Shown here in pieces: positions 1-37,857 of a stretch of 37,857 nt of DNA. The notes beneath the pieces were generated by a model. The model saw nothing but the letters and a program-made list of their open reading frames with translations, made no database searches and was not told the DNA's origin. The stretch comes from Patescibacteria group bacterium. GTDB taxonomy: Bacteria; Patescibacteriota; Minisyncoccia; Phycocordibacterales; PALSA-1337. A program made the position numbers and the translations under genes. The stretch lies in assembly GCA_038058815.1 (NCBI GenBank), contig JBBUAH010000008.1:1-37857 (forward strand), read 5' to 3'. Position 1 is the stretch's first letter, and each line of letters opens with the position of its first letter.

Positions 1-948
<948 letters not shown>

Positions 949-8313: not shown

Positions 8314-8342
8314 AAAAAGAAAAACCGTCTTTCATAAGACGG
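8314..8342 (-). terminator. intrinsic terminator downstream of the giant gene
   Basis: The minus strand reads CCGTCTTATGAAAGACGG (7-bp stem, 4-nt loop) followed by TTTTTCTTTTT. Confidence 0.7.
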
Positions 8343-8393
8343 CTTTCTTTCTAGGTTTTTTAATTAATTTTTTAGGATTTTTTATTAAAGCAA

Positions 8394-8546: not shown

Positions 8547-8547
8547 T

Positions 8548-9020
8548 TTTTATTTAACGAATTCATTCAACTTCGCCCTAGTCTTCGGTCCTACTAGACC
8601 ATATCCCCCATCACCTTCCTTTGCTATACCATATTTTACTTGGAATTTCTGAATGGCTCTTTCTGTAAGAGAACCAAAGTAATTGGTTTCATTTCCAAGG
8701 GAACCAACTCCCGTCTCTGAGATTCGTGTTTCTGAATCTTTATTTAAGATTTTCTGAAGTGAAATAACATCGTCACCAGAAACACCTTTTGATAATAGTT
8801 TTGTAAATATTACAGAGGTTGTAGGAGTAATAACTGGAGTAGTTGGAGTAGGAATTTTTGGTTGTGCCGTTCCAGTAATCTTAGAAACTTCTTGAAGTTT
8901 TGCTCTTGTTTGTGGGCCTACCCTACCTACTTGCGATATTCCGTATTTTGCTTGGAATCTTTTTACAGCTCTTTCTGTAGCAGGACCAAAATACCCCGTC
9001 ACTAAACCTTCTGGATATAT
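8548..9020. repeat. 473-bp perfect direct repeat, copy A (3' end of the giant gene)
   Basis: Base-by-base comparison with 15790-16262 shows identity across the whole span (offset 7242 bp). Identity stops abruptly at 9021 versus 16263 and at 8547 versus 15789. Confidence 0.95.
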
Positions 9021-15000: not shown

Positions 15001-15620
15001 TCATCAGCTGAATTTGTGGCTGTGCCAACCTTTACTTCACTTATTTTTACTAATGCTGTTTTAGACAATCTTATTACTTTAGAAGAAACAAAAGATAATC
15101 CAAGTCCTCCAGCAGTAGTACTAGCATAATTTGCATCTGCTGTAATATGAAAAGCATGACCATTTGTAATTCCAGAATTTGATGTAGTAGTAGCAACTAT
15201 ATAAAACTGTGTATTATTGCCTATATCAGCACCCCCAGTCGGCGTAAGAGTGATTAAATTTCCTGCTCCCACAGAAAAACTCGTTGCGACCGCTCCACTT
15301 ACGAAGGTATCTTCATCTATTTGAAATCCTGGATTTGTACCCGATTCTTTCCAAAGAGAGACTCTTGAAATTTCAGAAGCAGTAAGACCATCTTGATCTC
15401 CAATTAGATAAAATCCAACCTTAGTAAGCTTGTCCGAACCAGAATTCTGATTAAGCATGAATTGTGCCAATGGCAAAATAGATCCTCCACCAGCAGATAC
15501 AAATGGAGCATAAACTCCATCAATGATTGGACCTTGTAACGTAATAGCTGCATTTGCAAGAGTAGAAATCGAAAACGTGCCAATAACAAAGAAGAAAGCG
15601 ATAACAATTTTCTTTTTCAT
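8550..15620 (-). CDS. giant (2356 aa) secreted, wall-anchored multidomain surface protein
   Basis: Signal peptide MKKKIVIAFFFVIGTFSISTLANA. Lamin-tail-domain signature KISEVKVGTATNSADEFVELYNSGEVPIDLS (domain ~14487-15056). At least 3 SbsA-Ig-like units (e.g. GTSPFPGSINVPKNLAKISIEFNQMDMDTSTFTASNITL). At least 6 CarboxypepD_reg-like units (e.g. IRGTVTDSTDGQTLGGVTIHLMS...DGTYSFTNL). One FN3 (ITMAWTASSGG..TGYYIYRD...TTYYYKVGAY). Two C-terminal PG_binding_1-like domains (GDDIRALQTIL....GYFGPATERAVKRFQ; GDDVISLQKIL...NYFGSLTERAIQKFQ). Confidence 0.93.
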   Translation of the reverse strand: MKKKIVIAFFFVIGTFSISTLANAAITLQGPIIDGVYAPFVSAGGGSILPLAQFMLNQNSGSDKLTKVGFYLIGDQDGLTASEISRVSLWKESGTNPGFQIDEDTFVSGAVATSFSVGAGNLITLTPTGGADIGNNTQFYIVATTTSNSGITNGHAFHITADANYASTTAGGLGLSFVSSKVIRLSKTALVKISEVKVGTATNSADEFVELYNSGEVPIDLSQTPISLHTFYSNGSSTPVGITYFKKVIPPQGFFLIASQNGFNGGSIQPDAVFATSSFDVIKVNGGVSIATTSSSLGVNTATSTSVDYIGWGSQPAGNCEGGTCATALISDGKSLERYASTTSNSTKMAVGGEDSMKGNGWDSGDNSANFYLRTIPDPQNSLSTKEFAFSGGGGGGDMGSNALRVMGSYPGPGMTNVPVDLKYIGFGFNKPVDPTTVTASTVTFKKVENGTAIGSNLCITVTYNQMAGNMEPPAKCNLAASLLPSTSYVFMVTSGVTDLGGAGASALDQDSFTAGNQNYYATSTTGAAGQTFTSTIPPTIIGTSPFPGSINVPKNLAKISIEFNQMDMDTSTFTASNITLVGGSSISLSNFSFSTSTGKNILSITPATLSANTTYTLTVGVGVKNRTGSGIPLPSAYTSRFTTGSSAGDTTAPALVGIFPTPGTTISAPTNDFMFTFDDALDPSTVTTSSVTLATVSGGINLPGSVRYDPVSKEGHFTPSNVLPVGQSIRLTLIGATIANVAGVLLGTDITKDWTIESSNTDTTPSSIMFANGNEFELAITFNEAVNSTDATNISNYALTAGGSPQTLSALSGQSLTYDSSTKTAKLTGLRLAPGPFTATTTNIKDLSGNTMTSSVFRGNIMSAGSGSMGGMGFVGPGSFSGSTFGEQRDFSASGIGFMPPVQIRPSSSAVNASSTYTFELPIATQIPAGGTIVITFPSTSDFGLCCAATTSSRNTFVATQNRDINGPGPGTVGISSIVKDSTTKTVTITLDTATRSELFNGNTDTHDFLKFSIADIVNPSIPKGPDSSGYSLDIKSKSSNGTLLESFNANPIYIGGGNAGGGATTTIRGTVTDSTDGQTLGGVTIHLMSPQTGAVDTTTVEADGTYSFTNLAVGMNSTAGAYGGGAGSEFFISTDPSVAPTKKNNGATSNVYFGEPMPTPIRATSTNAIIKNFSLLETSANALTFLVKVGADSSTFTATEQVDVFAGGPGKFMVQTVTPGAGTISSGSTFATLYIPKINGQWGIGIGPAMPKGGGGMMGPPPSTDWASPKPVSLMISGCPTACNATVNGASASSYTFTISKANKTIAGILQDASGNAISGAEVYAYSPTGGTGNRSQTSASGSFSIKVAAGSYSVGAFSPGMGQSKEVSVVMASDGQYYVNGSATAASATTFILKMTKPGYTITGKITDGTNPVSASVFAYRTDSPGGVNAMSDLSTGNYTLYVDNGTWKVNSFIPGFGPMTEQTVTVSSANQTGIDFAPSTGNTMTILSGKIYEDIDGSNGYNTGDTAISGAVVRLSGTGGKMNEGVSDSDGNYSIRVIGSSYNISDIFHPTYNRIAPIGDNGTAIGSIDLSTASTTKNIKVPPRKTVNIFVKDSSGSALTVSKAFIDLFDPAKNAGIHTEITNASTTILQVPNGITPNVRVYIQGVPQSNVSIAGLNGSTVVTNGTFTVDGTENIVVTVNTTANAMSTIIGRVTASGDAVGESWISFIDTTNDVHVGTQATSTGWYNITLANGTYQVMANKPGYVGTPVSITVSGSATQNLTLTQSNLTISGTVTAGGSAAKDSFVRAEKVGGGHAIAKTDTSGAYTINVTSGKWRIFAAAEGYAEGKWSSGINDLVDTTSSSQTGINITLSTTASIQSKLATSNTFTDTSASTFSDSTVGVSVQLDGNTLGTAGDTSYLTAKETTNIPQTDSVNIIGNKAKDISAYSGDSQVKNLQSGKTATVELSYTKAELTAESMTSTSTINNLKVYSYSDDKQEWESLSTVPTYKDTDGNAIATADIATSLSNVASVSFSAVGTHFSAYALADPRGVEPPGTPTGVSATGGSAGSGQITMAWTASSGGTSATGYYIYRDTSASGSFALLANAGNVTSYTDTTPTAGTTYYYKVGAYASGGDLESAASSVANASVAAATSVSSGGRIRIPVITPIVTTSVQTTIPSLTIPEKALLTSIKRDLGKGMNGDDIRALQTILSKDKSIYPEGLVTGYFGPATERAVKRFQAKYGISQVGRVGPQTRAKLQEVSKITGTAQPKIPTPTTPVITPTTSVIFTKLLSKGVSGDDVISLQKILNKDSETRISETGVGSLGNETNYFGSLTERAIQKFQVKYGIAKEGDGGYGLVGPKTRAKLNEFVK

Positions 15621-15658
15621 ATAATTATATTAATATTTAAATCAATGATTTAAACTCT

Positions 15659-15664
15659 ATTATA
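15659..15664 (-). promoter_or_regulatory. candidate -10 element for the giant gene
   Basis: The minus strand reads TATAAT ~38 nt upstream of the ATG at 15620, preceded by a T8 tract and the TTATCCACC motif. Confidence 0.35.
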
Positions 15665-15694
15665 TAACTACATATCAATAAAAAAAATATAATC

Positions 15695-15705
15695 GGTGGA
15701 TAACT
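15695..15705 (-). promoter_or_regulatory. AGTTATCCACC motif (DnaA-box-like, one mismatch), site 1
   Basis: The minus strand reads AAAAAGTTATCCACC, 30 nt upstream of TATAAT (15659-15664). It shares the 14-mer AAAAAGTTATCCAC with site 2. Confidence 0.5.
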
Positions 15706-15730
15706 TTTTCATTAAATTAAAATAGGACAA

Positions 15731-15756
15731 ACAAAAAACCACCCTTTGAAGAGTGG
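15731..15756 (-). terminator. intrinsic terminator after the 367-aa gene
   Basis: The minus strand reads CCACTCTTCAAAGGGTGG followed by TTTTTTG. It is near-identical in design to the hairpin at 17586-17601. Confidence 0.65.
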
Positions 15757-15789
15757 AGTTTTGTCGTCATCTTATGTTATTTTAAGTTA

Positions 15790-16262
15790 TTTTATTTAAC
15801 GAATTCATTCAACTTCGCCCTAGTCTTCGGTCCTACTAGACCATATCCCCCATCACCTTCCTTTGCTATACCATATTTTACTTGGAATTTCTGAATGGCT
15901 CTTTCTGTAAGAGAACCAAAGTAATTGGTTTCATTTCCAAGGGAACCAACTCCCGTCTCTGAGATTCGTGTTTCTGAATCTTTATTTAAGATTTTCTGAA
16001 GTGAAATAACATCGTCACCAGAAACACCTTTTGATAATAGTTTTGTAAATATTACAGAGGTTGTAGGAGTAATAACTGGAGTAGTTGGAGTAGGAATTTT
16101 TGGTTGTGCCGTTCCAGTAATCTTAGAAACTTCTTGAAGTTTTGCTCTTGTTTGTGGGCCTACCCTACCTACTTGCGATATTCCGTATTTTGCTTGGAAT
16201 CTTTTTACAGCTCTTTCTGTAGCAGGACCAAAATACCCCGTCACTAAACCTTCTGGATATAT
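15790..16262. repeat. 473-bp perfect direct repeat, copy B (3' end of the 367-aa gene)
   Basis: Identical to 8548-9020. It encodes the same 156 C-terminal residues (SIYPEGLVTGYFGPATERAVKRFQ...GPKTRAKLNEFVK). Confidence 0.95.
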
Positions 16263-16895
16263 TGAACTATCTTGAGCTAGAAATTGCTGAAGTTTCTCCA
16301 CATCAGCTCCTTGGCTACCACGGGATAGGTCATTAGTAAGGACAACATTGGAAATTGCACCTGTGACTTTGGGTGTACAAACCACTCCTGCAGGACAGCC
16401 GGGTACGACAGCTGGAGTTGGAGTTACTGGAGGGAGTAAAACAACTACCGGTGGAGGTGATCCTCCACCACCACTGCTACTTCTTCCTCCTCCAGATGTA
16501 TTTGTACTAGATGTTACAGTACATGTTGTGGCAGAAGGTATGACTTTTACTGTTCGTGTTGAACCTGATTGAATTGTGATAGTTAATGTATTACTAGCTG
16601 ATGTACATTCTTGAGAATAATCGTTACCTCCTATCCCAGACACTGCCATAACATACTTATCAGCAGACGTCACTATCATCGTTGAACTGGTAAGCATTGT
16701 GGCAACAAAATCCGTGGAATTAACTACAATCGATTCTATAAGTGCTGATGAACCACTTACTGTTAATGTTTTTCCATCAACAGTCAAAACTGTATCGGTT
16801 GTTAAAGTCACATCATTATAGGCTGCATTAGTAATGGCCAGTGGTACCAATACCGAGAGAATTATTGCGCCAATACTTAATTGGTATTTAGGCAT
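15792..16895 (-). CDS. secreted protein with tandem C-terminal peptidoglycan-binding domains
   Basis: 367 aa with signal peptide MPKYQLSIGAIILSVLVPLAITNA, a Thr/Ser-rich beta-type N-domain and a Gly/Pro linker (SSSGGGGSPPPVVVLLPPVTPTP). It ends with two PG_binding_1-like domains, the last ~156 aa being identical to the giant protein. Confidence 0.88.
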   Translation of the reverse strand: MPKYQLSIGAIILSVLVPLAITNAAYNDVTLTTDTVLTVDGKTLTVSGSSALIESIVVNSTDFVATMLTSSTMIVTSADKYVMAVSGIGGNDYSQECTSASNTLTITIQSGSTRTVKVIPSATTCTVTSSTNTSGGGRSSSGGGGSPPPVVVLLPPVTPTPAVVPGCPAGVVCTPKVTGAISNVVLTNDLSRGSQGADVEKLQQFLAQDSSIYPEGLVTGYFGPATERAVKRFQAKYGISQVGRVGPQTRAKLQEVSKITGTAQPKIPTPTTPVITPTTSVIFTKLLSKGVSGDDVISLQKILNKDSETRISETGVGSLGNETNYFGSLTERAIQKFQVKYGIAKEGDGGYGLVGPKTRAKLNEFVK

Positions 16896-16907
16896 GATTA
16901 ATTAAAA

Positions 16908-17456
16908 TTAGCGAATAATTAGATAAGCAGTACTTGAACCTATACCAGTTGACGAAGGAACAGATGTTGCTCCGCCATTCCAAAGAAGGATTGTAATGTA
17001 TCCAGCAGTCGTTGAAGCTTTTGCTCCAACTATAGCCCAGTCACCAGCTAAGTTATTTGAGCCTGCCACAAAAGGTGTTGAGGTAGAAAGTTGGGCCATA
17101 ACCATATCACCACTTACTACACCTGTTACAGCACAATCATAAGCTTCAGTAGTAGATGCTGTATGATTTCCATCCATACTATTTAGACCTGTTCCATTCC
17201 ATGAAGTACAAAACCCTTTGATTAATTGAGTTACCGTTGTACCACTAGATCCTATTGATACTCTAGTTGTTGAGGCATTCACTAAAGTTGTCACGCCTGT
17301 TACACCTACTGTACCTGTTACAGTTAGATTACCTTCTGTGACAATATTAGTACTTATAGTTGTGGCAGCAGATACAACAGTGACCACAGCTAACACACCA
17401 AAAATTACCGAAAGTGTCAGTGTTAAAAACGGATTCTTTGAATAAAGTTTATTCAT
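16908..17456 (-). CDS. small secreted/membrane-anchored hypothetical protein
   Basis: 182 aa with an N-terminal hydrophobic anchor or signal (FLTLTLSVIFGVLAVVTVVSA), Thr/Gly/Val-rich beta-type sequence and two Cys residues. It lies 12 nt upstream of the 367-aa gene, so they are probably co-transcribed. Confidence 0.7.
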   Translation of the reverse strand: MNKLYSKNPFLTLTLSVIFGVLAVVTVVSAATTISTNIVTEGNLTVTGTVGVTGVTTLVNASTTRVSIGSSGTTVTQLIKGFCTSWNGTGLNSMDGNHTASTTEAYDCAVTGVVSGDMVMAQLSTSTPFVAGSNNLAGDWAIVGAKASTTAGYITILLWNGGATSVPSSTGIGSSTAYLIIR

Positions 17457-17557
17457 ATTAAAAAATATAAAAAATTAACAATTAATAATCAAGACTCGAC
17501 TAATAACTAATATTATACACCTTTTAAGTTTTTAAAAAACAAAAGTGAATCTTAGAA

Positions 17558-17568
17558 TGTGGATAACT
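17558..17568 (-). promoter_or_regulatory. AGTTATCCACA motif (identical to the DnaA-box consensus TTATCCACA), site 2
   Basis: The minus strand reads AAAAAGTTATCCACA, 40 nt upstream of TATAAT (rc of 17512-17517), ahead of the 182-aa gene. Confidence 0.5.
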
Positions 17569-17574
17569 TTTTAC

Positions 17575-17607
17575 AAAACAAAAAACCACCCTTTCGAGTG
17601 GTTTTTT
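17575..17607 (-). terminator. bidirectional-looking intrinsic terminator after the 630-aa gene
   Basis: Hairpin CCACCC-TTTC-GAGTGG (17586-17601) flanked by an A-run on the left and T6 on the right. A second small hairpin, GTCCT-CCTTG-AGGAC, lies at 17612-17626. Confidence 0.7.
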
Positions 17608-17690
17608 GTATGTCCTCCTTGAGGACTTGCGTTCAATTTACGCTAGATAAGTTTGATTTTTAAACAAAACTTATGAAATTAATTTCTTTA

Positions 17691-19583
17691 TTAAGGGAAT
17701 GAAACGCCTGTTGTTCTCCAATCCAATTCTGAACCCATAAATGTCAGAGCATACACAGAGTTTGACTGTATACTTTCAAGTCCAATGGCATATGAACCAG
17801 AAGTGAATGCAGCTGATGCACTACGACCCATAATTGTGAATGTAACAGGAATATCAACCGTAGTACCTTCAGGTATTGTGAATGTATTGCTTGTCACAGT
17901 ATACCCGGAAGGAGCAGAGAAGTCTGTTGAAGTTGCATAAGAACTCAATGCCAAATCAACTACACTGTTTCTGTATATTTTGAAACCAGTTGATGAAGAA
18001 GCAAACATTGGTGTGTTTGAAGCTAATGTACCAAGATCAATAGCCCCACCAACTGCTTTTACTGTAACTACGAAGGTAGCAGTCAAAGTCGATGTACTAA
18101 CATTTGTTGATACACCATTATTTTGAGGTGCTCCAGCTGTTACAATACTCTTTGATTTTAGTTTAGCCTCCAATCCAACATTTCTTATTCCAAAACGATT
18201 ACCAGTAGCGGTACCACTTACAGTAACACTATCTTTAATAGAGTTTACAGCAGTAATATCAGAAATAGCAGCAATAGCAGTTGTTTCATTTGCTACTGTA
18301 CCATTTGCACTAGTGATATCAAGTTTTACAGTAAGAGTCTTAATAGTTCCCTTAGGAATAGTGATAATTCCATTAGTATCTGTAATAGCTGCTACACCAG
18401 TGGAGGTATTTACAGAAGCATTACCTATTTCTGTTGAACCATCGAAAAGGTAAGCTGTAGAAGAAGTAGCTGCTCCTGTTCCTGTCTTAGAAACAGTTAC
18501 GTTTACTGTAGTAAGTGTTACATTGTCTTTTTCAGCTTTTACATCAAAGATCAGTGTAGGTAACTTATCTAATTGATCTTCACTCGATCCATTTGCAGCG
18601 ATAACATCTTGTCTAATTGGGGTTGAAGGATTAAGAGATACAGTCAAAGTAGCTGATTCAGTAAGAGTAGGATCAATATTTTGAGCTCGTGTAATATCTG
18701 TAGCAGCAGAAGGAGTATATTGATCAATACCAGCTCCATCTACACCACGAATACCACTAGCAGCGAATCTAATAGTAAAGGTTTCAGTGTCAATTTCAGT
18801 AGTATCAATTGATGGTCTAACATCAACCTTGATAGTAAGAACTTTTGTTGCATCTTTTGGAATCACATAATTCATTCCACTAAGAGTAATATAATATCTA
18901 CTCCCATCAAGTATAGCTGTAGTTGAATTCAAATTAGAAGAAGCCAAAACTGTACCTGCCTCATCTGTTACATAAATCTTTGAATAGATTTTGTTCCAGA
19001 TAGTAGTAGCAGTTCCTAAGTCCAATTTAACTCTTTCTATTCTAACATCAGAAGACTTTGCTGTAACTTTTGCGCCAAGAACTGGGACCATAGTATCACC
19101 TTCATAAACAACAGAAGGCAAACCTGCATTTGTCTGTACTGATGTAATTGAACCTTCAACTCCTGGAGTCGTTATAACTCCTGGTGTTCCTGTTGCAACT
19201 GTCGCAGGAGTCGTTCCTGGATTAGCTGTACATGTATATCCTGTTGGACATACAAATCCAGCTGGAGCAACTGCTACTCCACCACCACCATTTACTATAG
19301 CTCTTGTAAGAGGACCGAAGTATCCGAATGATGGAAGATTCACTGTCTTCTGATAAGCTGCAACAGCTGCCTTTGTTTGTGAACCAAAGTAGCCTTTTGT
19401 TGCTACACCAGAACTAAGAGCTGGTATATCAAAACCCTTACTCATAAGCCATGTCTGTAGAGCAGTTACATCTACTCCTGTACTTCCAACTGTAAGGTTG
19501 GAATCGAATGCTGCATTTACAGAAGCTGCTCCTACGAGAGCGACTGTCAAAGCAACAACACTTGCGATTATATATTTCTTCAT
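17691..19583 (-). CDS. secreted wall-associated protein: N-terminal PG-binding domain plus Ig-like/S-layer-like beta repeats
   Basis: 630 aa with signal peptide MKKYIIASVVALTVALVGAASVNA. PG_binding_1-like region GVDVTALQTWLMSKGF....GYFGSQTKAAVAAYQ. This is followed by a Cys-containing linker and a long Thr/Val/Ser-rich repeat-like beta sequence. Confidence 0.88.
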   Translation of the reverse strand: MKKYIIASVVALTVALVGAASVNAAFDSNLTVGSTGVDVTALQTWLMSKGFDIPALSSGVATKGYFGSQTKAAVAAYQKTVNLPSFGYFGPLTRAIVNGGGGVAVAPAGFVCPTGYTCTANPGTTPATVATGTPGVITTPGVEGSITSVQTNAGLPSVVYEGDTMVPVLGAKVTAKSSDVRIERVKLDLGTATTIWNKIYSKIYVTDEAGTVLASSNLNSTTAILDGSRYYITLSGMNYVIPKDATKVLTIKVDVRPSIDTTEIDTETFTIRFAASGIRGVDGAGIDQYTPSAATDITRAQNIDPTLTESATLTVSLNPSTPIRQDVIAANGSSEDQLDKLPTLIFDVKAEKDNVTLTTVNVTVSKTGTGAATSSTAYLFDGSTEIGNASVNTSTGVAAITDTNGIITIPKGTIKTLTVKLDITSANGTVANETTAIAAISDITAVNSIKDSVTVSGTATGNRFGIRNVGLEAKLKSKSIVTAGAPQNNGVSTNVSTSTLTATFVVTVKAVGGAIDLGTLASNTPMFASSSTGFKIYRNSVVDLALSSYATSTDFSAPSGYTVTSNTFTIPEGTTVDIPVTFTIMGRSASAAFTSGSYAIGLESIQSNSVYALTFMGSELDWRTTGVSFP

Positions 19584-28932: not shown

Positions 28933-30207
28933 TTAATCTTTAAATGTAAGAATTTTCTCAATTTGATCTTTATCCTTATACGGACCAATTATAGCTAAAT
29001 TCAGCCCTTCGTCCACAAAGATTTTCTTTGCAATATCTTTCACTTCCTTTACAGTGACTTTCTGTATTTTCTTTATTTCTCCTTGTGGAGAATTGATTTT
29101 ACCCTTTAATATTTGATTTATGGCAAAATATTCGGCGCGGGAGTCCGATGTCTCAAGTCCAAGCAAGAAAGAACCGCATATATAATCCTTAACCTTTTTC
29201 ATTTCATCATTATTTATTGGATCATTTATTATTTTTTTGCATTCTGATAAAAGCACTTTTATGACTTCTTCAATCCTTTTCGTATCTATACCAGCTGAAA
29301 TAGAGAAAAGTCCATGATCAGTATAAGCATCATGATTGGCACGAATATAGTATCCGACACCCATCTCTTCACGTAATTTCTGGAAAAGCCTGCTACTCAT
29401 ACCACTTCCAAGAAGTGTGGAAAGTACGGCTAGAGTATGATCATATTTACTATTAGCACTAAACGATCTCATACCCAAGACTAGATGTGCTTGATCTGTT
29501 TCTTTAAATTTAACAAGTACCTTCGGCCTTGTTTGCTCTTCTTTTACCGCTATCTTCTTCGTCTTATTCCCCACTGATATATCTTTGAAAATCTTTTCAA
29601 TCTTTTTTATTATAGTCTTTTCATTGAATGAACCAGAGATTATGACTGTAGTAGCATCCACCACATAATGCTCCTTTCTATATTTAATAAAATGATTTTG
29701 ATTAAAGCTTTTCACATTCTCTTCGCTACCAGCAATATTCCACCCCGCCGGCTGATCTCCATATACAAGATTCATAAAAAGATCATGTATATGTCTCTGT
29801 GGCATATCTTGATACATTCTTATCTCTTCCACTATCACCCCCTTTTCTTTTTCGATTTCAGAGCTATCTAATAAAGAATTTAGATAAATATCAGAGACAA
29901 CATCAAGCGCCGTATCTAAATGCTTCGGATTTACCTTGGCATAATATCCTGTATATTCTTGAGAAGTAAAAGCATTGTATTGAGCTCCAATTGAATCTAG
30001 TTCTTTGGAAATATCTATGGACTTCGGTCTTTTCTTAGTTCCCTTAAAAACCATATGCTCTAGGAAATGCGATAGACCATTTATCTCCTTTGTCTCATAT
30101 TTCGAACCAGTTTCCACCATAACAAGAACCGTGACTGCGGGATTATCAGTCATAGGTATTGTGATTACTTTTAATCCATTTTTTAGTATTGTTTTTTTGA
30201 ATTTCAT
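28933..30207 (-). CDS. M16-family (insulinase/pitrilysin-like) zinc peptidase
   Basis: 424 aa with the inverted zinc motif HFLEHMVFKGT (HxxEH) and a downstream Glu-containing region EKGVIVEEI. Confidence 0.9.
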   Translation of the reverse strand: MKFKKTILKNGLKVITIPMTDNPAVTVLVMVETGSKYETKEINGLSHFLEHMVFKGTKKRPKSIDISKELDSIGAQYNAFTSQEYTGYYAKVNPKHLDTALDVVSDIYLNSLLDSSEIEKEKGVIVEEIRMYQDMPQRHIHDLFMNLVYGDQPAGWNIAGSEENVKSFNQNHFIKYRKEHYVVDATTVIISGSFNEKTIIKKIEKIFKDISVGNKTKKIAVKEEQTRPKVLVKFKETDQAHLVLGMRSFSANSKYDHTLAVLSTLLGSGMSSRLFQKLREEMGVGYYIRANHDAYTDHGLFSISAGIDTKRIEEVIKVLLSECKKIINDPINNDEMKKVKDYICGSFLLGLETSDSRAEYFAINQILKGKINSPQGEIKKIQKVTVKEVKDIAKKIFVDEGLNLAIIGPYKDKDQIEKILTFKD

Positions 30208-31526
30208 CAGAAAACTTTCTCTTTTATGTGTTTAATCAATTCTTCTATTCCAACCCTCTCCTGCTTCCCTGTATCTCTATCACGCACCGTCACTCCTGCA
30301 TTTTTTTCTATAGTATCGAAGTCCACCGTGACACATATAGGTGTTCCGATCTCATCTTGTCTTCTATATCTTTTTCCTATATTTCCATTATCGTCAAATG
30401 CCACCCCTGAAATTTCTTTTTTCAGCATTTTATATATTTCGCGAGCTTTTTCAACCAAAGCTGGTTTATTCTTCAATAATGGAAAAACTGCCACTTTTAT
30501 CGGTGCCATTTTTGGTGAGAATTTCAGATAAACTCTTTTCTCTCCATCTATTTCATCTTCGGTATATGCATCAGAGAGTACGGCTAAGACAGTTCTCTCG
30601 ACTCCGAATGAAGGCTCTATACAATGTGGAATAAATCTTTCTTTACTCTCTTCATCATAATAAGAAAGGTCAACTTTACTTACTTCTGAATGTTGCCTAA
30701 GATCAAAGTCGGTTCTATAAGCTAATCCATAAAGCTCATCTTTACCAAAAGGAAAATCGAATTCAAAGTCAATTGTCTTTTTCGAATAATGTGCCCTTTC
30801 ACCATCAGGAACTTCCAATTCATGAATATGTTTAGGATTTATTCCAATATCTTTTATAAATCCATGAATTTCATTTTTAAAGCTTTCAAAAGTCTCTTTC
30901 CAGCTTTTAGAATCTACAAAATATTCAATCTCCATCTGCTCAAATTCTCTAGTACGAAAGATAAAGTCTCGGGGAGAGATTTCATTTCGAAAGGCCTTAC
31001 CTATCTGTGCAAGTCCAAATGGTAATTTCGGATGAAAGCTGTCAAGAACATTTTTAAAATTTACAAACATACCTTGTGCTGTTTCTGGTCTAAGATATGA
31101 AATAGAATCCTCGTTTTCTATAGGACCGACATTTGTTTTAAACATCATATTGAATTGTCTGGACTCACCGAGCCCGCCTTCACAATCTGGACATTTTGAT
31201 GGATCTTCTATCTGATCAGCACGGAAACGATGATTACACTTTTTACATTGAACGAGTGGATCGGAAAAGCCAGAAACATGCCCGCTCGCCTTCCATACAT
31301 TCTGATTCATTAAGATCGAAGCATCTACTTTATACATATCGTCACGATTTTCTACAAACCTTTTCCACCAGAGTTGTTTTATATTATCTTTCAAGACCAC
31401 GCCGAGAGAACCGAAATCCCATGTACCCGAAAGTCCACCGTATATTTCCGATCCTTGAAATATGAATCCTCGCCTTTTGCATAGCGATATGATTTTCTCC
31501 ATTTTATTTTCTTCTTTTATTGCCAT
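30207..31526 (-). CDS. glyQS: glycyl-tRNA synthetase (alpha2 homodimeric type)
   Basis: 439 aa with RRGFIFQGSEIYGGLSGTWDFGSLG, RPETAQG, GLAQIGKAFRNEISPR, FEQMEIEYF and PHCIEPSFGVERTVLAVL. The stop overlaps the start of the M16 gene by 1 nt. Confidence 0.94.
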   Translation of the reverse strand: MAIKEENKMEKIISLCKRRGFIFQGSEIYGGLSGTWDFGSLGVVLKDNIKQLWWKRFVENRDDMYKVDASILMNQNVWKASGHVSGFSDPLVQCKKCNHRFRADQIEDPSKCPDCEGGLGESRQFNMMFKTNVGPIENEDSISYLRPETAQGMFVNFKNVLDSFHPKLPFGLAQIGKAFRNEISPRDFIFRTREFEQMEIEYFVDSKSWKETFESFKNEIHGFIKDIGINPKHIHELEVPDGERAHYSKKTIDFEFDFPFGKDELYGLAYRTDFDLRQHSEVSKVDLSYYDEESKERFIPHCIEPSFGVERTVLAVLSDAYTEDEIDGEKRVYLKFSPKMAPIKVAVFPLLKNKPALVEKAREIYKMLKKEISGVAFDDNGNIGKRYRRQDEIGTPICVTVDFDTIEKNAGVTVRDRDTGKQERVGIEELIKHIKEKVF

Positions 31527-31539
31527 ATTTATTATTTGA

Positions 31540-33477
31540 TTATTGAATTACCTTTTCATCACCATCCTTAAACATCTGATCTGTACTGAAACGTGTATTC
31601 AATTGCCCTAGGGAATTATTGAGAGTCTGTAGTGTGAAATCATCTTGTGCTGTAATCGATGCTTGATTTACCAAAACAGGGATCTGACCGACTTGCGTAA
31701 TACTTGGCGTAAGTGAGACTTGAAATGCTACTTGTCTTCTATGTGAACTATTGAAGGCGTACGTATCTACATTACCAATTCTCCATACTATTTGTCCATC
31801 GACACTGTTATAAGAAATATCTTCTCCTGAAGGATTTATTTTACCTATCCATTTTACATATGGTGGTAAACTAGAATGTACTTCAGCATCTGTCACTGTA
31901 CTAGAAGTATTATCGACAGTCCAGACTATGGTATATGTAGTCGGTTGTTCGGCTTTAGGTGGTATAAAGCCAGTGTTTTCGAATGGTCCAGTCGAACGTA
32001 TGACTTGTCCGCTTAAAGAAAGATTTGATGAAATCTTTATACGCCTATTGGCACTTGATGCTATATTTTCTGGAACATTTGTTTCGGAATTTCTTTTACC
32101 CTTCATATTTACATCTATAGAGATATTTGGATTTATAATAGTCTTTTGCGAATTACTTAGATCGCGTGGAATAATATTGAAACTGACACGCCCACCTTCT
32201 CCAGCACTGATATCTGCTAGTTCTTTATTTGTGATTTGATTCCAGACTATTTCATTTGTTATGGAATTATATACACCTTGATCTGGAGATACAGAAAGCT
32301 TATCAAGAGCTGTACCAGTAAGCTTCACATGTATTTTTCCATCAATTACAGATGTCTGTAAATTGTTGAAATATAGAACCTCGACTTTAATCGGATTATT
32401 AAATTTTCCTATATATTCTTGGCTATCACTATTTCCTTCTATGGATAATCCGACACTTACAAATGGTTTCTTTATTGCAACTTCTTGAGTGCTAGAAACA
32501 TATTCTGTACCGATAACCTTCTCATTTCGTACACTTTGTGCTCCTGTGATAAATCTAAAGATTCTTGTTTCATCGTCTTGTCCATCAAGCTTTCCCTTTA
32601 TCTTTATTGTTTTCTTTCCTCCCGGAGGTATATCCCCTATTTTCCATACTGTATTATCAGAAAAAGGTTTAGTATCAGAAGATATAAAAGTAAAACCGAA
32701 AGGATATACAGCCTTCAATAAAATATTCTTTATCACTTCTTTTGAATTAGAAGTCATATTGACAGAAAGTTCGAATTCTTGGCTTGAATTCACTTCTTTA
32801 AATGAATTGGTCAATAAAGTAAGGGGTGAGGAGCTGATAAGAAGATCAAATGTTTTTTCTTTTTGGAAAATAGCATTTGATCCTTTTACTCTATATTCGA
32901 CTGTTACCTTTATCTCTTTTTTACTATTTTCTTCTCCGTATACGACAGCTTTAATCGTCTTCTGGCCAATACCACCTGGTTCTATATCGTTTAACAATTC
33001 TCTGAATGTCTTCAATTCTTTTGTTGTATCTTCAGAATCCGTAGTGCCAGAAGGAAAATCTACAGAAAGGTCAACTGTTTCAAGCTTTATATTATTTTTA
33101 TTTGAAACTTGAATATCGAAGGAAACAGGCTCACCACCAGCGACAGATACTGGCCCACCTATTGTAATATCGATATTATTTGCTGAAACAATATTTGATC
33201 CATTGAATACAAGATACAAGCCAATACCAAGAGCTATTAAGAAAAATATTATCGATCCAATAAAGAGTTTTGTAAAAAATGACATGGAATTATCTTTGTA
33301 TTGTGTATTCAATTTAACATCCTCTCTTGGCCATTCTTCCTTATGTTCCCAATCTGTATTCATATCCATTTCTTGCCGAGTAAATCTCAAGCGCCTTTTC
33401 GTACGAATATCAGGCGCACTTCGAGAATAAAGGGATTTCTTTAATTCTTCAATTCTACTTTGTTCATCAGGGGTCAT
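31540..33477 (-). CDS. membrane-anchored hypothetical protein with a large beta-sandwich-repeat ectodomain
   Basis: 645 aa with a charged N-terminal cytoplasmic segment, one TM helix (FFTKLFIGSIIFFLIALGIGLYLVF) and then repeated CARDB/DUF11-like sandwich-type segments (e.g. GEPVSFDIQVSNKNN, GDIPPGGKKTIKIKGKL, AGEGGRVSFNIIP). Confidence 0.8.
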   Translation of the reverse strand: MTPDEQSRIEELKKSLYSRSAPDIRTKRRLRFTRQEMDMNTDWEHKEEWPREDVKLNTQYKDNSMSFFTKLFIGSIIFFLIALGIGLYLVFNGSNIVSANNIDITIGGPVSVAGGEPVSFDIQVSNKNNIKLETVDLSVDFPSGTTDSEDTTKELKTFRELLNDIEPGGIGQKTIKAVVYGEENSKKEIKVTVEYRVKGSNAIFQKEKTFDLLISSSPLTLLTNSFKEVNSSQEFELSVNMTSNSKEVIKNILLKAVYPFGFTFISSDTKPFSDNTVWKIGDIPPGGKKTIKIKGKLDGQDDETRIFRFITGAQSVRNEKVIGTEYVSSTQEVAIKKPFVSVGLSIEGNSDSQEYIGKFNNPIKVEVLYFNNLQTSVIDGKIHVKLTGTALDKLSVSPDQGVYNSITNEIVWNQITNKELADISAGEGGRVSFNIIPRDLSNSQKTIINPNISIDVNMKGKRNSETNVPENIASSANRRIKISSNLSLSGQVIRSTGPFENTGFIPPKAEQPTTYTIVWTVDNTSSTVTDAEVHSSLPPYVKWIGKINPSGEDISYNSVDGQIVWRIGNVDTYAFNSSHRRQVAFQVSLTPSITQVGQIPVLVNQASITAQDDFTLQTLNNSLGQLNTRFSTDQMFKDGDEKVIQ

Positions 33478-33490
33478 GGCAAATATTATA

Positions 33491-34048
33491 TCATAGTTGG
33501 CTTTCTTTGAGAGCTGTATTTATAACCCTGATAATCTTACTCTTATTCTCATTCATATTCTTGATTATGTCCTCATTGATAGAATTATTCTCTAGGAAAA
33601 TATTTAATTTCTCTGTATTTCTTATATACCCCAGAGTGCTCAATATTCTCAAAACCGTCAAACATTCCACACTATTATAATCTTTCTCTTTTATATCAGC
33701 TTTATACAAAGTCTCTATTATTTCAAATAGCTTTTCATTTTTTTCTTCTCCATGAAGTAATCTCTTTAATAATTTGAGAATTTTAATGTGTAAAATATTT
33801 GGTTTTACTTTATTTTCAATTTCATGTGCACCTGTCAATCTCCATACCTCCTTTCCCCTGACTATGGAAATATTTGTATAGTCAAAATCTTGAATATGAT
33901 AACGAAGTTTGGATTTATTGAGTCGTATTCCCTGTGCCAAGGCCCCTATCATACCGAAATTCTCTGTAAATATAAGTAGGAATTTCCCAGATTCACCATG
34001 TGGAGTACTGGATATTATAAATGCGGAAGTTGTGTATATATGATGCAT
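33491..34048 (-). CDS. recO: DNA repair protein RecO (short form)
   Basis: 185 aa. The N-terminal OB-fold pattern (AFIISSTPHGESGKFLLIFTENFGMIGALAQGIRLNKSKLRYHIQDFDY..ISIVRGKEVWRLTGA) is typical of RecO. The C-terminal half is shorter than in E. coli RecO. Confidence 0.75.
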   Translation of the reverse strand: MHHIYTTSAFIISSTPHGESGKFLLIFTENFGMIGALAQGIRLNKSKLRYHIQDFDYTNISIVRGKEVWRLTGAHEIENKVKPNILHIKILKLLKRLLHGEEKNEKLFEIIETLYKADIKEKDYNSVECLTVLRILSTLGYIRNTEKLNIFLENNSINEDIIKNMNENKSKIIRVINTALKESQL

Positions 34049-34117
34049 TTAGGGCAATTAAAAAATGGCTTTATTTAGCCATTTAATTGTAATACATTTG
34101 AGATAATTAAAAAATAC

Positions 34118-34145
34118 TTGACAAAAAATGTGGTTATGCTAGGAT
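34118..34145 (+). promoter_or_regulatory. candidate sigma70-type promoter of the orphan RNA
   Basis: Perfect TTGACA (34118-34123), a 16-nt spacer, then TAGGAT (34140-34145). The GC-rich block starts 4 nt later at GGGG (34149). Confidence 0.55.
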
Positions 34146-34148
34146 ATA

Positions 34149-34398
34149 GGGGTCGATGGGCTCGGGCGTTTATGTGGAGAAAGTCCCCCCCTATCGGCCT
34201 CCTCCGTTTGTCTTAAGCAGACGGAGAGCTCAGCGAGATGGTTTCCTAGGCTTTGGTCCAGTGTGTCAACGAGGGACAGTATGCACCTCGCTACGACATT
34301 CCACGCCAGACCTCAATTCACCCGTTGTGGGGGATTGCCTTGAGCGAGGAAAGGGCCATCTCACCCAGTCGCACGCTTAGGCGGGGCTGGGTTTTCTT
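34149..34398 (+). ncRNA. GC-rich structured RNA of unassigned family (possible strongly reduced RNase P RNA; alternatives are 6S-like or novel)
   Basis: Hand count gives ~59% GC over 34151-34390, within AT-rich flanks. It has a promoter upstream and a terminator at its 3' end. Internal helices: CTCC..GGAG hairpin 34202-34226; GGTCCAGTGTG (34255-34265) with CACGCCAGACC (34302-34312); long-range GAGATGGTTTCC (34235-34246) with GGAAAGGGCCATCTC (34348-34362). GGAGAAAGTCC (34176-34186) resembles RNase P CR-I, with a possible P4-like pairing AAGTCCCCC/GGGGGATT (34329-34336). Confidence 0.8.
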
Positions 34399-34401
34399 TT
34401 T
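34364..34401 (+). terminator. intrinsic terminator of the orphan RNA, overlapping the ileS stop codon
   Basis: CCCAG(T)CGC...GCG(GGG)CTGGG stem followed by TTTTCTTTTT (34392-34401). The ileS TAA is the rc of 34400-34402. Confidence 0.6.
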
Positions 34402-37400
34402 ACACCAAATCCATTTTCACTGAAAAATCCCCAATCTTCATCGATTCACCTTCTATATTTTTATAAACAATTTCTTTTAATAAAGTACTACTTATAATCA
34501 TATTTTCATTTTCCTTTATTAAATTCTTCACACCCTCATCACCATCTATTGCAAGTACTGCTCTATCCTGTATTGTTAAACCTTTTGATTTCCTCAAATC
34601 TTGCACAGCGCGGACTAATTCTCGAATTATTCCCTCTTCTTTTAATTCTGGGGTAATAGAAATGTCTAAAAGTACCTCTTCAGAAAGAGTTGTATCAGAA
34701 ACTATTTCCTTTACATTTATTTCATCTCTTACAAGATTAATCAAATTATCTGAAATGATAGCTTTTATAGTGAGTTTAGAGAGTGGTTGACGGACATTTA
34801 TCTTCGCCTTCATACGAGCTTCTAGACCTAGAGATGCTATCTTTCTCACTTCTTTCATGGATTCTATTATCTTTTTATCAAATTTCTTAATCTCTGGCCA
34901 TGCTTCCATATGAACACTTTCCTTAGGACCTTTCAATCTAAGATATATATCTTCTGCAAGAAATGGCATAAAAGGTGCTAATAATTTTATTAGGGTAATA
35001 AGTACTGTATGAGTAGTAGATAATGCCATTTTTCTATCATTCTGATCTTCACCCTTAAAGCGGTCTCTAGATCGCCTTAAATACCAAGTAGAAAGATCAT
35101 CAATAAAATCAGCAAGAGGCCATGAAGCACGATCAATTTCATATTTTTCTAGACTCTCTGTTACATTTTTTATAAGTTCTGCAAGCCTGGCTAGTATCCA
35201 AATATCAAGTGGATGATTACCAGAAACATTTTCCATACCAGAAATAGCATACATTTCATAAAATGTAACAACATTATTCAAACGACCAATATGTTTCTTC
35301 ACAACTTCATCTACACCCTTTTCGGAAAAGGCGAAGTCTTGAGCGTGTACTACAGGAGATGACATTAGATAATATCGCAATGCATCAGCTCCATACTTAT
35401 CTACGATATTCATAAGATCTGGATAATTTTTCTTCGACTTAGACATTTTCTGACCATCTTCAGCAAGAAGAAGACCATTGACCACTACATTTCTAAAAGG
35501 AGATTTTCCGAAAAGTCCCACGCCCAAAACAAGCATAGAATAAAACCATCCCCTAGTCTGATCTAGTCCTTCTGCGATGAAGTCTGCAGGATAGCCTTTC
35601 GTTCTTCCAAGAATTTTACTGAAAGGACCCGGCTTTGGATTGAAATCACATTTACTGAATGGATAATGAGATTCGCCAAAAGGCATAGAACCAGATTCAA
35701 ACCAACAATCGAAAACTTCAGAAACCCTATTTAATCTATTCCCTTTTTCATCTGTAAGCTTTATATCATCGATAAAAGGATGATGCAGATCAGCTTCATA
35801 TTCATCATTGTGAGGTAATGGATGGAAATCGAGCTTGGATGGTTTAGCATTCTGATTATAATGATCAGTATTCCCACGAAGAGATATTGATTGTTCCCTA
35901 TTTAGACCTTGCGCTACAGAATTCAATAAGAAAAGTGGAGTATCATGAGAAATTATGAGAATGTTTTTACCTTCATATTTATTCTCAATATCATAAAGAA
36001 AATCCCCTACACGCTTCTTTATATCTACATAATTCTCACCTCCTTCTGATGTCTTTATAAATCTATCTGCATGATTGAATTCTTTTACAAAATCGAGGAA
36101 TGGTTTATTATTCCAGACTCCGGCACCAAGCTCGCGTAATCTAGAATCAATAATAATTTCTGATGTATTAAGATCGATAACCTTGGCGATAACTTCTGCT
36201 GTTTCTCTCGTACGAATAAATGGGGAAACGAAAATAAGGTCGATTTTCTTATCTTTCAACCATTTTCCTGCTTCTTCTGCTTGTTTTTTCCCTTTCTCCG
36301 TTAAATAGTGGGAATTTTCTGCTATGGAACTGATAATCATCAAAGTATTGTTTTCTGCTTCTCCATGACGTGTAATATAAAATGTATTTTTTGCATGGCT
36401 ATATTTTCTGAGGTCTGCAATTGAAGAAAGAACGATAGATTCGTGATTTTCTTCATTTCTCCAAACCGGAAGAGGTGCACCCCAGAAACGAGATCTAGAA
36501 ATAGCCCAATCCCGAGCTCCCGAAAGCCAATCCCCGAATCTTCCTTCACCTATTTCAGGCGGAATCCATTTTATTTTTTTATTTTCTTTTATAAGTTTAT
36601 CGCGAATAGCAGTAACTTTTACAAACCAAGAAGATGTAGCATAGTTTAGAAGTGGAGTATCACATCTCCAACAATGTGGATATGAATGGATTATTTTTTC
36701 TTTTGAAAAAAGAGTATTATGATGCGCCAAATATTTTATTATCTCTATATCGGCTCTTTGATGTACATCTTTTTCATTTTCGGTCGATTTCGGCTTTACT
36801 TGTTGCCCCGCAAAATCAGTAACTTCTGATTTGAATACACCATTCATAGTGACATGCTGCGCGAAAGGTAAATTGTATTTTAATGAAAGATCATAATCAT
36901 CAGCACCGAAAGCAGGAGCAATATGAACAATTCCGGTACCATCTTCTATAGTTACGAAATCCGCACCATAAACCCTCCAACCGTTTTCATAATTCTTTAA
37001 ATTTTTATCATTTGAATAATATGTAAAGACTGGTTCATATGGTTTTCCTATTAAACTTTTTCCATCAAATTCTTCTAAGACTTTATACTCTGTTTTAATA
37101 ACTGACAGCCTTGATTGGGCTAAAATTAACTTTATATTTTCTGTTTCAATTTTTACATATTTTATTGAAGGATTTATTGCAAGAGCTGTATTCCCCGGCA
37201 GTGTCCATGGCGTAGTCGTCCAAGCTAGAAAATATGTATTTAGCTCATCTATAAGTTTGAATTTTACTGTTACGGAAATATCTGTAATATCTTTATAGCC
37301 TTGACTGACTTCGAAGTTTGAAAGTGTCGTCTCACATCGAGGACAGAGATTCATAGACTTGAATCCTTCGTAGATAAGACCTTTCTTATGGAGTTCAGCA

Positions 37401-37857
37401 AATGCCCACCATACAGATTCTGTGTATGTGGTGTCCATTGTCCTATAATCATTATCCATATCTGCCCATCTTCCGAGTCTAGGAATAATCTTTCTCCAAA
37501 CATCCGCATATCGCATCACACTATCCTTTGCAGCGGAATTGAATTTTCCTATTCCATAATCGATTATATCTTTCTTTGAAGTCAGTTTTAATTCTTTTTC
37601 CATAAGATTTTCTACAGGCAAACCATGGCAATCCCATCCCCAACGACGTCGCACATGATATCCTTGCATGGTCTTATAACGAGGAATAATATCTTTTATA
37701 GTACCCGGTATAACATGCCCATAATGTGGCTCACCCGTAGCAAATGGTGGACCATCATAAAATACAAATTCACCCTTTGGCGAAGGCTGTTCTAATGTCT
37801 TTTTGAAAATATTATTCTTTTCCCAAAAAGCTAGTATTTTCTCTTCGGTTTCAGATA
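34400..37857 (-). CDS. ileS: isoleucyl-tRNA synthetase (type 2/eukaryote-like), N-terminus truncated by the window edge, carrying an internal histidine-phosphatase domain
   Basis: The frame stays open upstream of the first Met (37669) to the window end: ...EKILAFWEKNNIFKKTLEQPSPKGEFVFYDGPPFATGEPHYGHV (HIGH). The CP1 editing motif TTTPWTLPGNTA, plus WAISRSRFWGAPLPVW, DCWFESGSMPF and KMSKS (GQKMSKSKKN), are all present. Confidence 0.95.
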   Translation of the reverse strand, partial: SETEEKILAFWEKNNIFKKTLEQPSPKGEFVFYDGPPFATGEPHYGHVIPGTIKDIIPRYKTMQGYHVRRRWGWDCHGLPVENLMEKELKLTSKKDIIDYGIGKFNSAAKDSVMRYADVWRKIIPRLGRWADMDNDYRTMDTTYTESVWWAFAELHKKGLIYEGFKSMNLCPRCETTLSNFEVSQGYKDITDISVTVKFKLIDELNTYFLAWTTTPWTLPGNTALAINPSIKYVKIETENIKLILAQSRLSVIKTEYKVLEEFDGKSLIGKPYEPVFTYYSNDKNLKNYENGWRVYGADFVTIEDGTGIVHIAPAFGADDYDLSLKYNLPFAQHVTMNGVFKSEVTDFAGQQVKPKSTENEKDVHQRADIEIIKYLAHHNTLFSKEKIIHSYPHCWRCDTPLLNYATSSWFVKVTAIRDKLIKENKKIKWIPPEIGEGRFGDWLSGARDWAISRSRFWGAPLPVWRNEENHESIVLSSIADLRKYSHAKNTFYITRHGEAENNTLMIISSIAENSHYLTEKGKKQAEEAGKWLKDKKIDLIFVSPFIRTRETAEVIAKVIDLNTSEIIIDSRLRELGAGVWNNKPFLDFVKEFNHADRFIKTSEGGENYVDIKKRVGDFLYDIENKYEGKNILIISHDTPLFLLNSVAQGLNREQSISLRGNTDHYNQNAKPSKLDFHPLPHNDEYEADLHHPFIDDIKLTDEKGNRLNRVSEVFDCWFESGSMPFGESHYPFSKCDFNPKPGPFSKILGRTKGYPADFIAEGLDQTRGWFYSMLVLGVGLFGKSPFRNVVVNGLLLAEDGQKMSKSKKNYPDLMNIVDKYGADALRYYLMSSPVVHAQDFAFSEKGVDEVVKKHIGRLNNVVTFYEMYAISGMENVSGNHPLDIWILARLAELIKNVTESLEKYEIDRASWPLADFIDDLSTWYLRRSRDRFKGEDQNDRKMALSTTHTVLITLIKLLAPFMPFLAEDIYLRLKGPKESVHMEAWPEIKKFDKKIIESMKEVRKIASLGLEARMKAKINVRQPLSKLTIKAIISDNLINLVRDEINVKEIVSDTTLSEEVLLDISITPELKEEGIIRELVRAVQDLRKSKGLTIQDRAVLAIDGDEGVKNLIKENENMIISSTLLKEIVYKNIEGESMKIGDFSVKMDLV
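35825..36391 (-). other. histidine phosphatase (phosphoglycerate-mutase-like) domain embedded in ileS
   Basis: Residues ~427-615, counted from Met at 37669: FYITRHGEAENN, LTEKGKKQAEEAGKWL, LIFVSPFIRTRETAEVI, LRELGAGVWNN, ILIISHDTPL. These are all the signature motifs of the His_Phos_1 family. Confidence 0.8.

Follow-up and report, generated by a model that had tools for sequence, protein, structure and literature searches.

Between the genes recO and ileS of a Patescibacteria group bacterium lies a GC-rich, non-coding stretch that appears to be the gene of a structured RNA. We analysed it within the 37,857-nt contig JBBUAH010000008.1 (the window). Both flanking genes are on the minus strand. 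recO (33491-34048) appears in the list of open reading frames (ORFs) as a 185-aa protein with the RecO_N domain only (Pfam PF11967, E=2e-12), and diverges from the RNA gene. ileS (34400-37669) encodes a 1089-aa protein with an inserted histidine-phosphatase domain (Pfam), and converges with the RNA gene. The plus strand between them holds a GC island (34146-34401). Its GC content is 58.0% in 34152-34396, compared with a window mean of 35.5% (standard deviation 6.4%, 100-nt windows). The island is the GC maximum of the window, above the piece of 23S rRNA at 1-950, and is the sole GC peak outside the ORFs and the rRNA gene.

The island has its own putative promoter and terminator. The promoter (34118-34145, plus strand) consists of TTGACA (34118-34123), a 16-nt spacer and TAGGAT (34140-34145), with an extended -10 TG at 34137-34138, and matches the consensus at 10 of 12 positions. 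The promoter scan by itself was not above chance (2 sites observed, 1.6 expected); all relatives that carry an RNA, however, retain CTTGACA and TGnTAnnnT. The RNA, which we call a type A cargo, would be about 250 nt long (58% GC) and would run from 34149, some 6-8 nt past the -10 box, to the U-tract at 34401. This tract, UUUUCUUUUU (34392-34401), follows a bulged 13-bp hairpin (34364-34391), and the two form a predicted intrinsic terminator (34364-34401) that overlaps the ileS stop codon (34400-34402, minus strand) by 2 nt. Owing to the bulge in its stem, it escaped a simple terminator scan. The terminator hairpin is retained in the two homologues that can be aligned with the element, at loci L084 and L114.

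The consensus structure comprises 85 pairs in 11 helices and was tested on the three type A sequences (window, L084 and L114). All of its parts lie on the plus strand. It begins with a 5' hairpin (helix 1; 34149-34201) in which a 12-bp stem, GGGGUCGAUGGG/CCUAUCGGCCUC, is followed by a 4-bp inner stem and by an apical loop with UUAUGU and the string AGAAAGUCC, which resembles conserved region I (CR-I) of RNase P RNA. This is followed by the variable hairpin 2 (34202-34226), in place of which L084 and L114 have a GCC-GAAA-GGC hairpin and an extra CGGCGC hairpin. The 3' domain (34235-34362; helices 4-10) is closed by a long-range helix between 34235-34246 and 34348-34362. In the consensus fold this domain holds a variable branched arm (34248-34313), a conserved hairpin CAAUUCACCC-GUUGU-GGGGGAUUG (34314-34337) and a hairpin CCUU-GAGC-GAGG (34338-34349). 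The terminator hairpin is helix 11.

Several results support this structure and assign it to one strand. The plus strand folds with a z-score of -3.1, a value reached by none of 200 dinucleotide shuffles, whereas the minus strand (z-score -1.1) does not fold better than its shuffles. The sense-strand folds of seven members have z-scores of -2.4 to -6.8. In the type A consensus 92.5% of the cells are paired, compared with 39-55% when the partners are slid by 1-3 columns. Double-sided changes were observed at 14 pairs; the column shuffles gave 6.4 ± 1.9 (0/500 reached the observed number) and the slid controls 1-3. The paired columns of the three sequences contain 25 G.U wobbles but only 3 A.C mismatches, and therefore the promoter-sense strand is the structured strand. 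Helix 1 (16 pairs, 95.7% paired) shows six one-sided and two double-sided changes. The long-range helix 4 (12 pairs, 97% paired) is found in both the minimum free energy and the consensus folds and contains a compensatory change from G-C to A-U. The changes in helices 6 and 7 are almost all double-sided, helix 9 is a conserved local hairpin with GGGGGAUU as its 3' strand, and helix 11 is 100% paired, with one compensatory change from C-G to U-A. Thus, a structured RNA that is independently promoted and terminated on the plus strand is supported by sequence comparison, and the element has what generally marks an independent small RNA (sRNA) gene: its own promoter, its own intrinsic terminator and a strand-specific, conserved structure with compensatory changes.

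These results bear out the whole description in an initial annotation of this DNA, which had noted a GC-rich block convergent with ileS, the TTGACA-16 nt-TAGGAT promoter, a hairpin plus T-tract over the ileS stop codon and the 12-bp long-range pairing. That annotation had also called the RNA an orphan and named an Rfam search and covariation in relatives as checks. A search of the whole window against Rfam 15 at the gathering threshold gave nothing for the element, nor did searches at E<=10 with 501 nt and with the 256-nt element. The 17 related loci (E<=10 or E<=1) gave only random sRNA matches far below the cut-offs. The orphan label is therefore apt. As compensatory changes were seen in the two homologues and no Rfam family matched, the annotation's suggestion of a different and possibly new structured RNA has held up. 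A single conserved RNA of the housekeeping type, on the other hand, is the wrong description, as the following comparison of close relatives shows.

An identical recO is also present in the metagenome-assembled genome (MAG) GCA_964367125.1 and in Hainich groundwater assemblies (0.1 um filters). L084 comes from another Hainich well, and its nucleotide identity to the window is 97.5% in recO and 97.0% in the 3' end of ileS. The block of promoter and recO-proximal arm is 98% identical between the two, and the RNA is unchanged over its first ~25 nt and its last ~40 nt. Between these ends, in contrast, the identity is only 59-77%, and the alignment has 55 gap columns, which include an additional hairpin of L084. 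At four-fold degenerate sites of the flanking genes the difference is 3.5% (11/316), whereas the aligned RNA interior differs by 22.7%. The interior has thus diverged at least 6.5 times as much as the neutral benchmark, with indels uncounted. The same is seen when L114 is included. The type A elements are 68, 64 and 73% identical where their flanks are 97, 86 and 86% identical, so that the alleles are about equidistant whereas the flanks group the window with L084. With L114 as the outgroup, the two very short branches receive 37 and 21 substitutions, and the long branch 28. This pattern is beyond point mutation along the species tree and therefore points to recombination that swaps old, divergent alleles or modules. 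It implies that the breakpoints of allele exchange may lie in the conserved ends of the RNA.

The element is part of a larger arrangement that is restricted to one group of relatives. In about 40 Paceibacterota genomes recO directly follows ileS on the same strand, with a gap of 0-4 nt or an overlap (TAATG). An insert between the two genes occurs only in one subclade, with a RecO at least ~60% identical to that of the window. We gathered this subclade by a metagenome scan and by RecO homologues, and compared about 125 loci in total; L123, L118 and L122 were too short or had no insert and so added no alleles. Carriers have a common layout. Read from the ileS stop codon, it consists of the terminator hairpin, 240-490 nt of GC-rich, non-coding sequence that lie on the opposite strand, the promoter and the arm. 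The arm, TACAAT(A/T)AAATGGC-loop-GCC-TTTTTAATTnCCCTAAA, reaches the recO ATG. In the window it occupies 34049-34117 (minus strand), and it is conserved in eight lineages, including L117, which has a protein cargo, and L124, which has no cargo. The identity of promoter and arm reaches 92-98% in comparisons in which the coding flanks have only 75-87%. The arm holds a hairpin with a T-run (AAAUGGCUAAAUAAAGCCAUUUUUU; 34063-34084), about 15 nt upstream of the recO start, which is a terminator-like match on the minus strand. This hairpin is kept with structure-preserving changes in the eight lineages (the window, with equivalents in L114-L117, L122, L124 and L085). It is preceded by a TACAAT box (34086-34091, minus strand), which has its match in the ileS end and the spacer of L124. 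The arm hairpin might serve as a leader or attenuator, terminate transcripts that read through from ileS, or belong to a recO promoter. The promoter scan gave no good sigma-70 promoter directed at recO.

The cargo behind this arm varies widely. Type A is found in the window, L084 and L114. The ~420-nt cargo of L115 is a hybrid: it has GGCCGUUUAUGU and GCCGAAAGGCAAUGGAGA in common with type A, and AGACAGAGU in common with type B. The module GCCGAAAGGCAAUGGAGA occurs in L084, L114 and L115, and AGACAGAGU in L115, L116 and L085; such modules, common to different cargo types, fit recombination. Type B, in L116 and L085, is defined by the collinear 10-12-mers AACUGAGUGU, ACACUAGCCC and UCAGACAGAGUU, each expected at most 0.2 times by chance. 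The homology within type B rests on these, as the pair counts for L116 and L085 (MAFFT/RNAalifold) were discarded as misaligned. L004 has a type C cargo, identical to that of L086, and L088 and L122 have parts of further types. Proteins can also occupy the site. In L117 (138-1856, minus strand) the same arm and a homologous -10 region precede the gene of a 572-aa protein that carries a Kre9/KNH-like Ig domain at its C-terminus, and in L120 (1-951, minus strand) the site holds the gene of a 317-aa protein for which neither Pfam nor PADLOC gave a match. Finally, in L124 (440-500) the ileS end (...ATT GAC TTA CAA TAA) is joined directly to the conserved arm, an arrangement that is either a scar or the pre-insertion state. 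In carriers, a TTACAAT(A/T)AA relic that matches this ileS end is found at the recO-proximal edge of the insert. This relic may mean that the ileS 3' end was duplicated and flanks the cassette, or that a deletion left a scar.

The RecO tree places cargo-free sisters in between the carriers (L088/L087, L116/L119 and L004/L041), and the gene is absent at the site in the sister lineages L041, L087, L118, L119, L124 and L125. The GC content of the RNA cargos lies 8-25 points above that of their flanks, but for the protein cargos at this site the difference is only 4-5 points. The GC excess is therefore a property of the RNAs and not of foreign DNA. Searches with nhmmer of each element type against the ~125 loci gave self-matches only, plus L084 and L114 for the type of the window. 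The covariance model R1, built from the 5' domain of type A, was searched across the cargo types and recovered only its three training sequences (window, L084 and L114). The model thus gave no sign of a structural core in common with the other cargo types, and homology among the types is at most conjectural.

The initial annotation had left room for an exceptionally reduced or rearranged RNase P RNA. This deserved attention because the RNase P RNAs of bacteria in the candidate phyla radiation (CPR) are reported to be diverged: 10 of 35 complete CPR genomes lacked one at default cut-offs, helices P12-P18 or P15 can be missing, and some were found only when the RF00010 threshold was lowered to 5 bits (Lui et al., 2021, PMC8172020). 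In our searches, no bacterial type A or B, archaeal, nuclear or type T model (RF00010, RF00011, RF00373, RF00009 and RF02357) matched at the gathering threshold or at E<=10, in the 501-nt region or in the 256-nt element. The search with the 256-nt element lists matches down to ~10 bits, where Lui et al. used 5 bits. The type B cargo matched no RNase P model either. The string AGAAAGUCC of the window is a single mismatch from CR-I (GGAAAGUCC; p<0.01 compared with shuffles), which does favour RNase P, but CR-I has three mismatches in L084 and two in L114, its nearest homologues, and two to three in the other cargo types, no better than shuffles. For CR-IV (AGAUGAAUG) and CR-V (ACAGAA-N-GGCUUA) the best matches in eight members have 3-5 mismatches (p=0.4-1.0 compared with shuffles), and the E. 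coli M1 control has none. The annotation was thus right that the CR-V string is lacking. The strings GGAGAAAGTCC and GGGGGATT, which it had pointed out, are present, but their RNase P reading fails. Pairing between AGUCCCCC and GGGGGAUU is possible, with an AAUCC/GGAUU equivalent in L084 and L114. However, the CR-I-like strand is apical in helix 1, a strongly supported closed hairpin, and the 3' candidate lies in the conserved local helix 9, so that the P1-P2-P3-P4 topology is not found. A pseudoknot between loop and strand is possible, though without this topology. Sister lineages also lack the gene at this site, L117 has a protein gene in its place, and a divergence of 23% plus indels, against 3.5% at neutral sites, is unlike an essential ribozyme core. 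We conclude that RNase P RNA is an extremely improbable identity for this element, and that a CR-I-like string alone is no evidence for RNase P.

Based on these results, we propose a model for the origin and role of the element. We believe that, on balance, it probably encodes a real, expressed and stable structured sRNA, which belongs to a new, lineage-restricted and fast-diversifying family and is carried as cargo of the ileS-recO cassette. The cassette consists of the recO-proximal arm, the strong promoter, a variable cargo and the terminator, inserted in the tight ileS-recO junction. Selection may keep the high GC content and the base-pairing on the sense strand, while the sequence turns over as old, divergent alleles or modules are swapped between lineages. 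Such swapping would leave near-identical strains with very different RNA interiors. From the fold we infer an abundant, nuclease-resistant RNA that may act in trans through its GNRA-capped helices around multiway junctions, for instance by binding or sequestering a protein. The diversity could be maintained by diversifying or frequency-dependent selection.

Several points weigh against this model. The 5' and 3' ends of the RNA are predictions. The covariation statistics are modest because only three type A sequences can be aligned and the structure was derived from them, and swaps of whole hairpins could account for part of the apparently compensatory signal. What we treat as one family may be several unrelated RNAs in a common hotspot. 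We found no partner protein, no target and no conserved loop motif beyond the GNRA loops and UUAUGU. Additionally, a cis-acting or non-functional element would equally lack sequence constraint.

It is possible, for instance, that the cassette works in cis, as a transcription module whose back-to-back promoter block and terminators uncouple recO and the downstream genes from ileS. The RNA itself would then act only locally, as an antisense to ileS read-through, by head-on interference, or by supercoiling-coupled activation of a promoter on the recO side. We hold this reading to be unlikely, though worth serious attention. It would explain why promoter and arm are the most conserved parts (92-98%) while the transcribed part varies freely, as a cis-encoded antisense RNA remains complementary at any sequence. 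Read-through from ileS is plausible because no U's follow the ileS-side hairpin in the ileS direction and the first terminator-like site on the minus strand lies just upstream of recO, and the overlapping ileS and recO of cassette-free relatives are operon-like. However, action in cis would leave unexplained why 250-490 nt of cargo lie 8-25 GC points over background and why the pairing is specific to the plus strand (the 25 G.U and 3 A.C described above). A divergence above the neutral rate is impossible from relaxed constraint alone, and the scan gave no convincing sigma-70 promoter facing recO.

We have also considered that the ileS 3' end is simply an integration or recombination hotspot and the RNAs are leftovers, such as those of degraded integrative elements, without a current function for the host. 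The patchy spread on the RecO tree, the varied cargos, including protein genes, behind the same arm, the mosaic alleles and the relic of a duplicated ileS 3' end or excision scar are all consistent with this idea. Nevertheless, no integrase, transposase, reverse transcriptase, TnpB or Cas is encoded in the window or in any carrier locus, and no clear target-site duplication or terminal inverted repeat was seen. The nhmmer searches gave no further copies among the loci compared, and nothing was found in phage and plasmid collections (BLAST) or in IMG/VR (scan for conserved motifs). Moreover, the promoter and an intact terminator are present in at least eight lineages, and GC content and structure have been kept against AT mutational pressure, which argues for ongoing selection. 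A relic of mobile DNA is therefore, in our opinion, quite doubtful. A small protein gene or a type I toxin-antitoxin pair is hardly credible. Gene callers have annotated ORFs of 74 aa (L002:328-552) and 107 aa (L114:1580-1903) inside the element, and in the window an AGGGG stands 4 nt ahead of the ATG of the 74-aa ORF (34156-34380). The start, frame and length of this ORF differ between relatives, however (74 aa in the window, 52 aa in L084 and 6 aa in the equivalent frame of L114), and neither strand encodes a hydrophobic peptide. The longest pseudo-ORF matches only itself among 5.8 billion proteins and has no Pfam match, and the substitutions preserve base pairs and not codons. Long ORFs are expected by chance at 58% GC. 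The annotated 74-aa and 107-aa proteins are almost certainly spurious, a result of stop-codon scarcity in GC-rich sequence, and annotators should be aware that GC-rich RNA islands yield such calls of 74-107 aa.

If the structured sRNA of our model exists, its diversity invites a further and more speculative proposal. The ileS-recO cassette might be an RNA-based polymorphic locus, in which old structured-RNA alleles are kept by diversifying or frequency-dependent selection and swapped via the conserved arms. We consider this unlikely enough to be offered only as a tentative idea. Were it true, the cassette would be an RNA analogue of variable surface-antigen or defence islands, and the RNAs could serve as decoys or antitoxins against phage or mobile elements, or as specificity determinants in the relationship between episymbiont and host. 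To our knowledge, no RNA-based polymorphic system of this kind has been described. As far as we know, non-coding RNAs (ncRNAs) of CPR bacteria (Patescibacteria), which make up a large share of bacterial diversity, are almost unstudied beyond rRNA, tRNA and the odd RNase P RNA. What is unusual here for bacterial sRNAs is the combination of a conserved promoter with a cargo that is replaced wholesale between strains with 97% identical flanks, while structure and GC content are maintained. Selected diversity of this kind would be a sign of a system of conflict or recognition at the RNA level in ultra-small symbiotic bacteria. Without such selection, the locus would still be a clean natural example of fast turnover of structured RNAs by modular recombination.

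The rest of the window is made up of housekeeping genes and genes for large surface proteins, and no tRNA gene was found anywhere in its 37.8 kb. The closest relatives of its IleS are encoded by MAGs of Patescibacteria (Paceibacterota). Residues 431-595 of IleS form a histidine-phosphatase domain (PF00300, E=5e-31) between the two halves of the catalytic domain. IleS of L114, L117 and L119 is recorded with this insertion as well; the insertion is therefore clade-wide and independent of the RNA cassette. The short RecO, which has only the N-terminal OB domain, is always followed by a 645-aa DUF11/CLIPPER-like protein (31540-33477, minus strand). After this comes a class II aminoacyl-tRNA synthetase (30207-31526 in the window), with a faint GlyRS_ins_1 label in L116, and the order recO-DUF11-synthetase is kept across the subclade. 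A series of very large predicted surface or cell-wall proteins is encoded at 5401-19583 (minus strand). Among them are a 2356-aa protein that combines CarboxypepD_reg, Big_5, fn3 and peptidoglycan-binding domains, an LCAT/PGAP1-like alpha/beta hydrolase of 936 aa and two more PG_binding_1 proteins. The 5' part of the 23S rRNA gene (1-950, minus strand) is only ~45% GC and has several large insertions compared with the bacterial consensus (such as blocks of ~32, ~30 and ~38 nt in the first 600 model positions); large 23S rRNA insertions are usual in CPR bacteria. In L085, the first ~28 nt of the type B RNA (1605-1632; UCUUGUCAGGGUGAGUUAGUGCUUGAUU) form a 75% direct repeat with a segment before the terminator (2030-2057; UCAUGUCAGACAGAGUUAGGGCCUGGUU). 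This repeat is marginal (p~0.04), and none of the other members has a significant one.

The element can be compared with several known systems. In the literature on RNase P and ncRNAs of Patescibacteria and Parcubacteria, we found only the paper of Lui et al. (2021) and that on TIGR-Tas to be relevant. RNase P RNA resembles the element in that both are GC-rich structured RNAs in a CPR genome, and one copy of the element has the CR-I-like AGAAAGUCC and a possible complementary GGGGGAUU; it differs in the lack of a covariance-model match, the topology, the absence of the gene from parts of the clade and the hypervariability between strains. A tmRNA or other tRNA-like RNA was rejected, as ARAGORN found none in the window, L004, L084, L085 or L088 and no Rfam tmRNA model matched. 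TIGR arrays, which occur in Parcubacteria, consist of tandem repeat-spacer units of ~36 nt, or of stem-loop units with box C/D, near a gene for Tas, a Nop-domain protein (PMC12045711). Like TIGR and CRISPR arrays, the element has conserved ends, a strain-variable interior and a rho-independent terminator at its end, and occurs in CPR bacteria. Unlike them, it shows no repeat periodicity (TRF found nothing at a score of at least 30, and six members contain no families of direct repeats) and no recognised units flanked by box C/D, and no Nop-domain Tas or Cas domain is found among the proteins of the window.

Sponge RNAs such as CsrB/RsmZ and 6S resemble the element: their promoter and terminator are strong and conserved, their hairpins are modular and vary in number, and their primary sequence is poorly conserved between taxa. 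A CsrB/RsmZ-like sponge was nevertheless rejected: each RNA has 4-11 GGA motifs, as expected from dinucleotide shuffles, of which 0-3 are unpaired. There is thus no enrichment of GGA or of other repeated loop motifs, and neither a 6S rod with a central bubble nor an Rfam match to 6S or Csr was found. The site itself resembles the integration or recombination hotspots of the att type found at the 3' end of a conserved tRNA, tmRNA or protein gene. In both, insertion is exactly at the 3' end, the arms are conserved, the cargo (RNA or protein) is lineage-specific, the distribution is patchy, and a relic of the gene end, here possibly that of ileS, lies on the far side. The cassette differs from such hotspots in its length of only 350-600 nt and in having no integrase and no clear att repeats. 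PADLOC gave no defence model among the neighbouring or alternative cargo proteins.

The orphan ncRNAs found in GC-rich intergenic regions by the Breaker laboratory (raiA, ROOL, GOLLD and OLE; PMC6429828, PMC11109978) are similar to the element in several ways. They too form GC-rich intergenic islands in AT-rich genomes, have multiple helices with GNRA loops, have an independent promoter and terminator, and have no assigned function. However, raiA, ROOL, GOLLD and OLE have cores that are conserved over wide phylogenetic ranges, and no Rfam family matches the element. Unlike classes of the raiA type, the RNAs at the ileS-recO junction differ drastically even where the flanks of two strains are 97% identical, and the RNA that occupies the site is not the same in different lineages.

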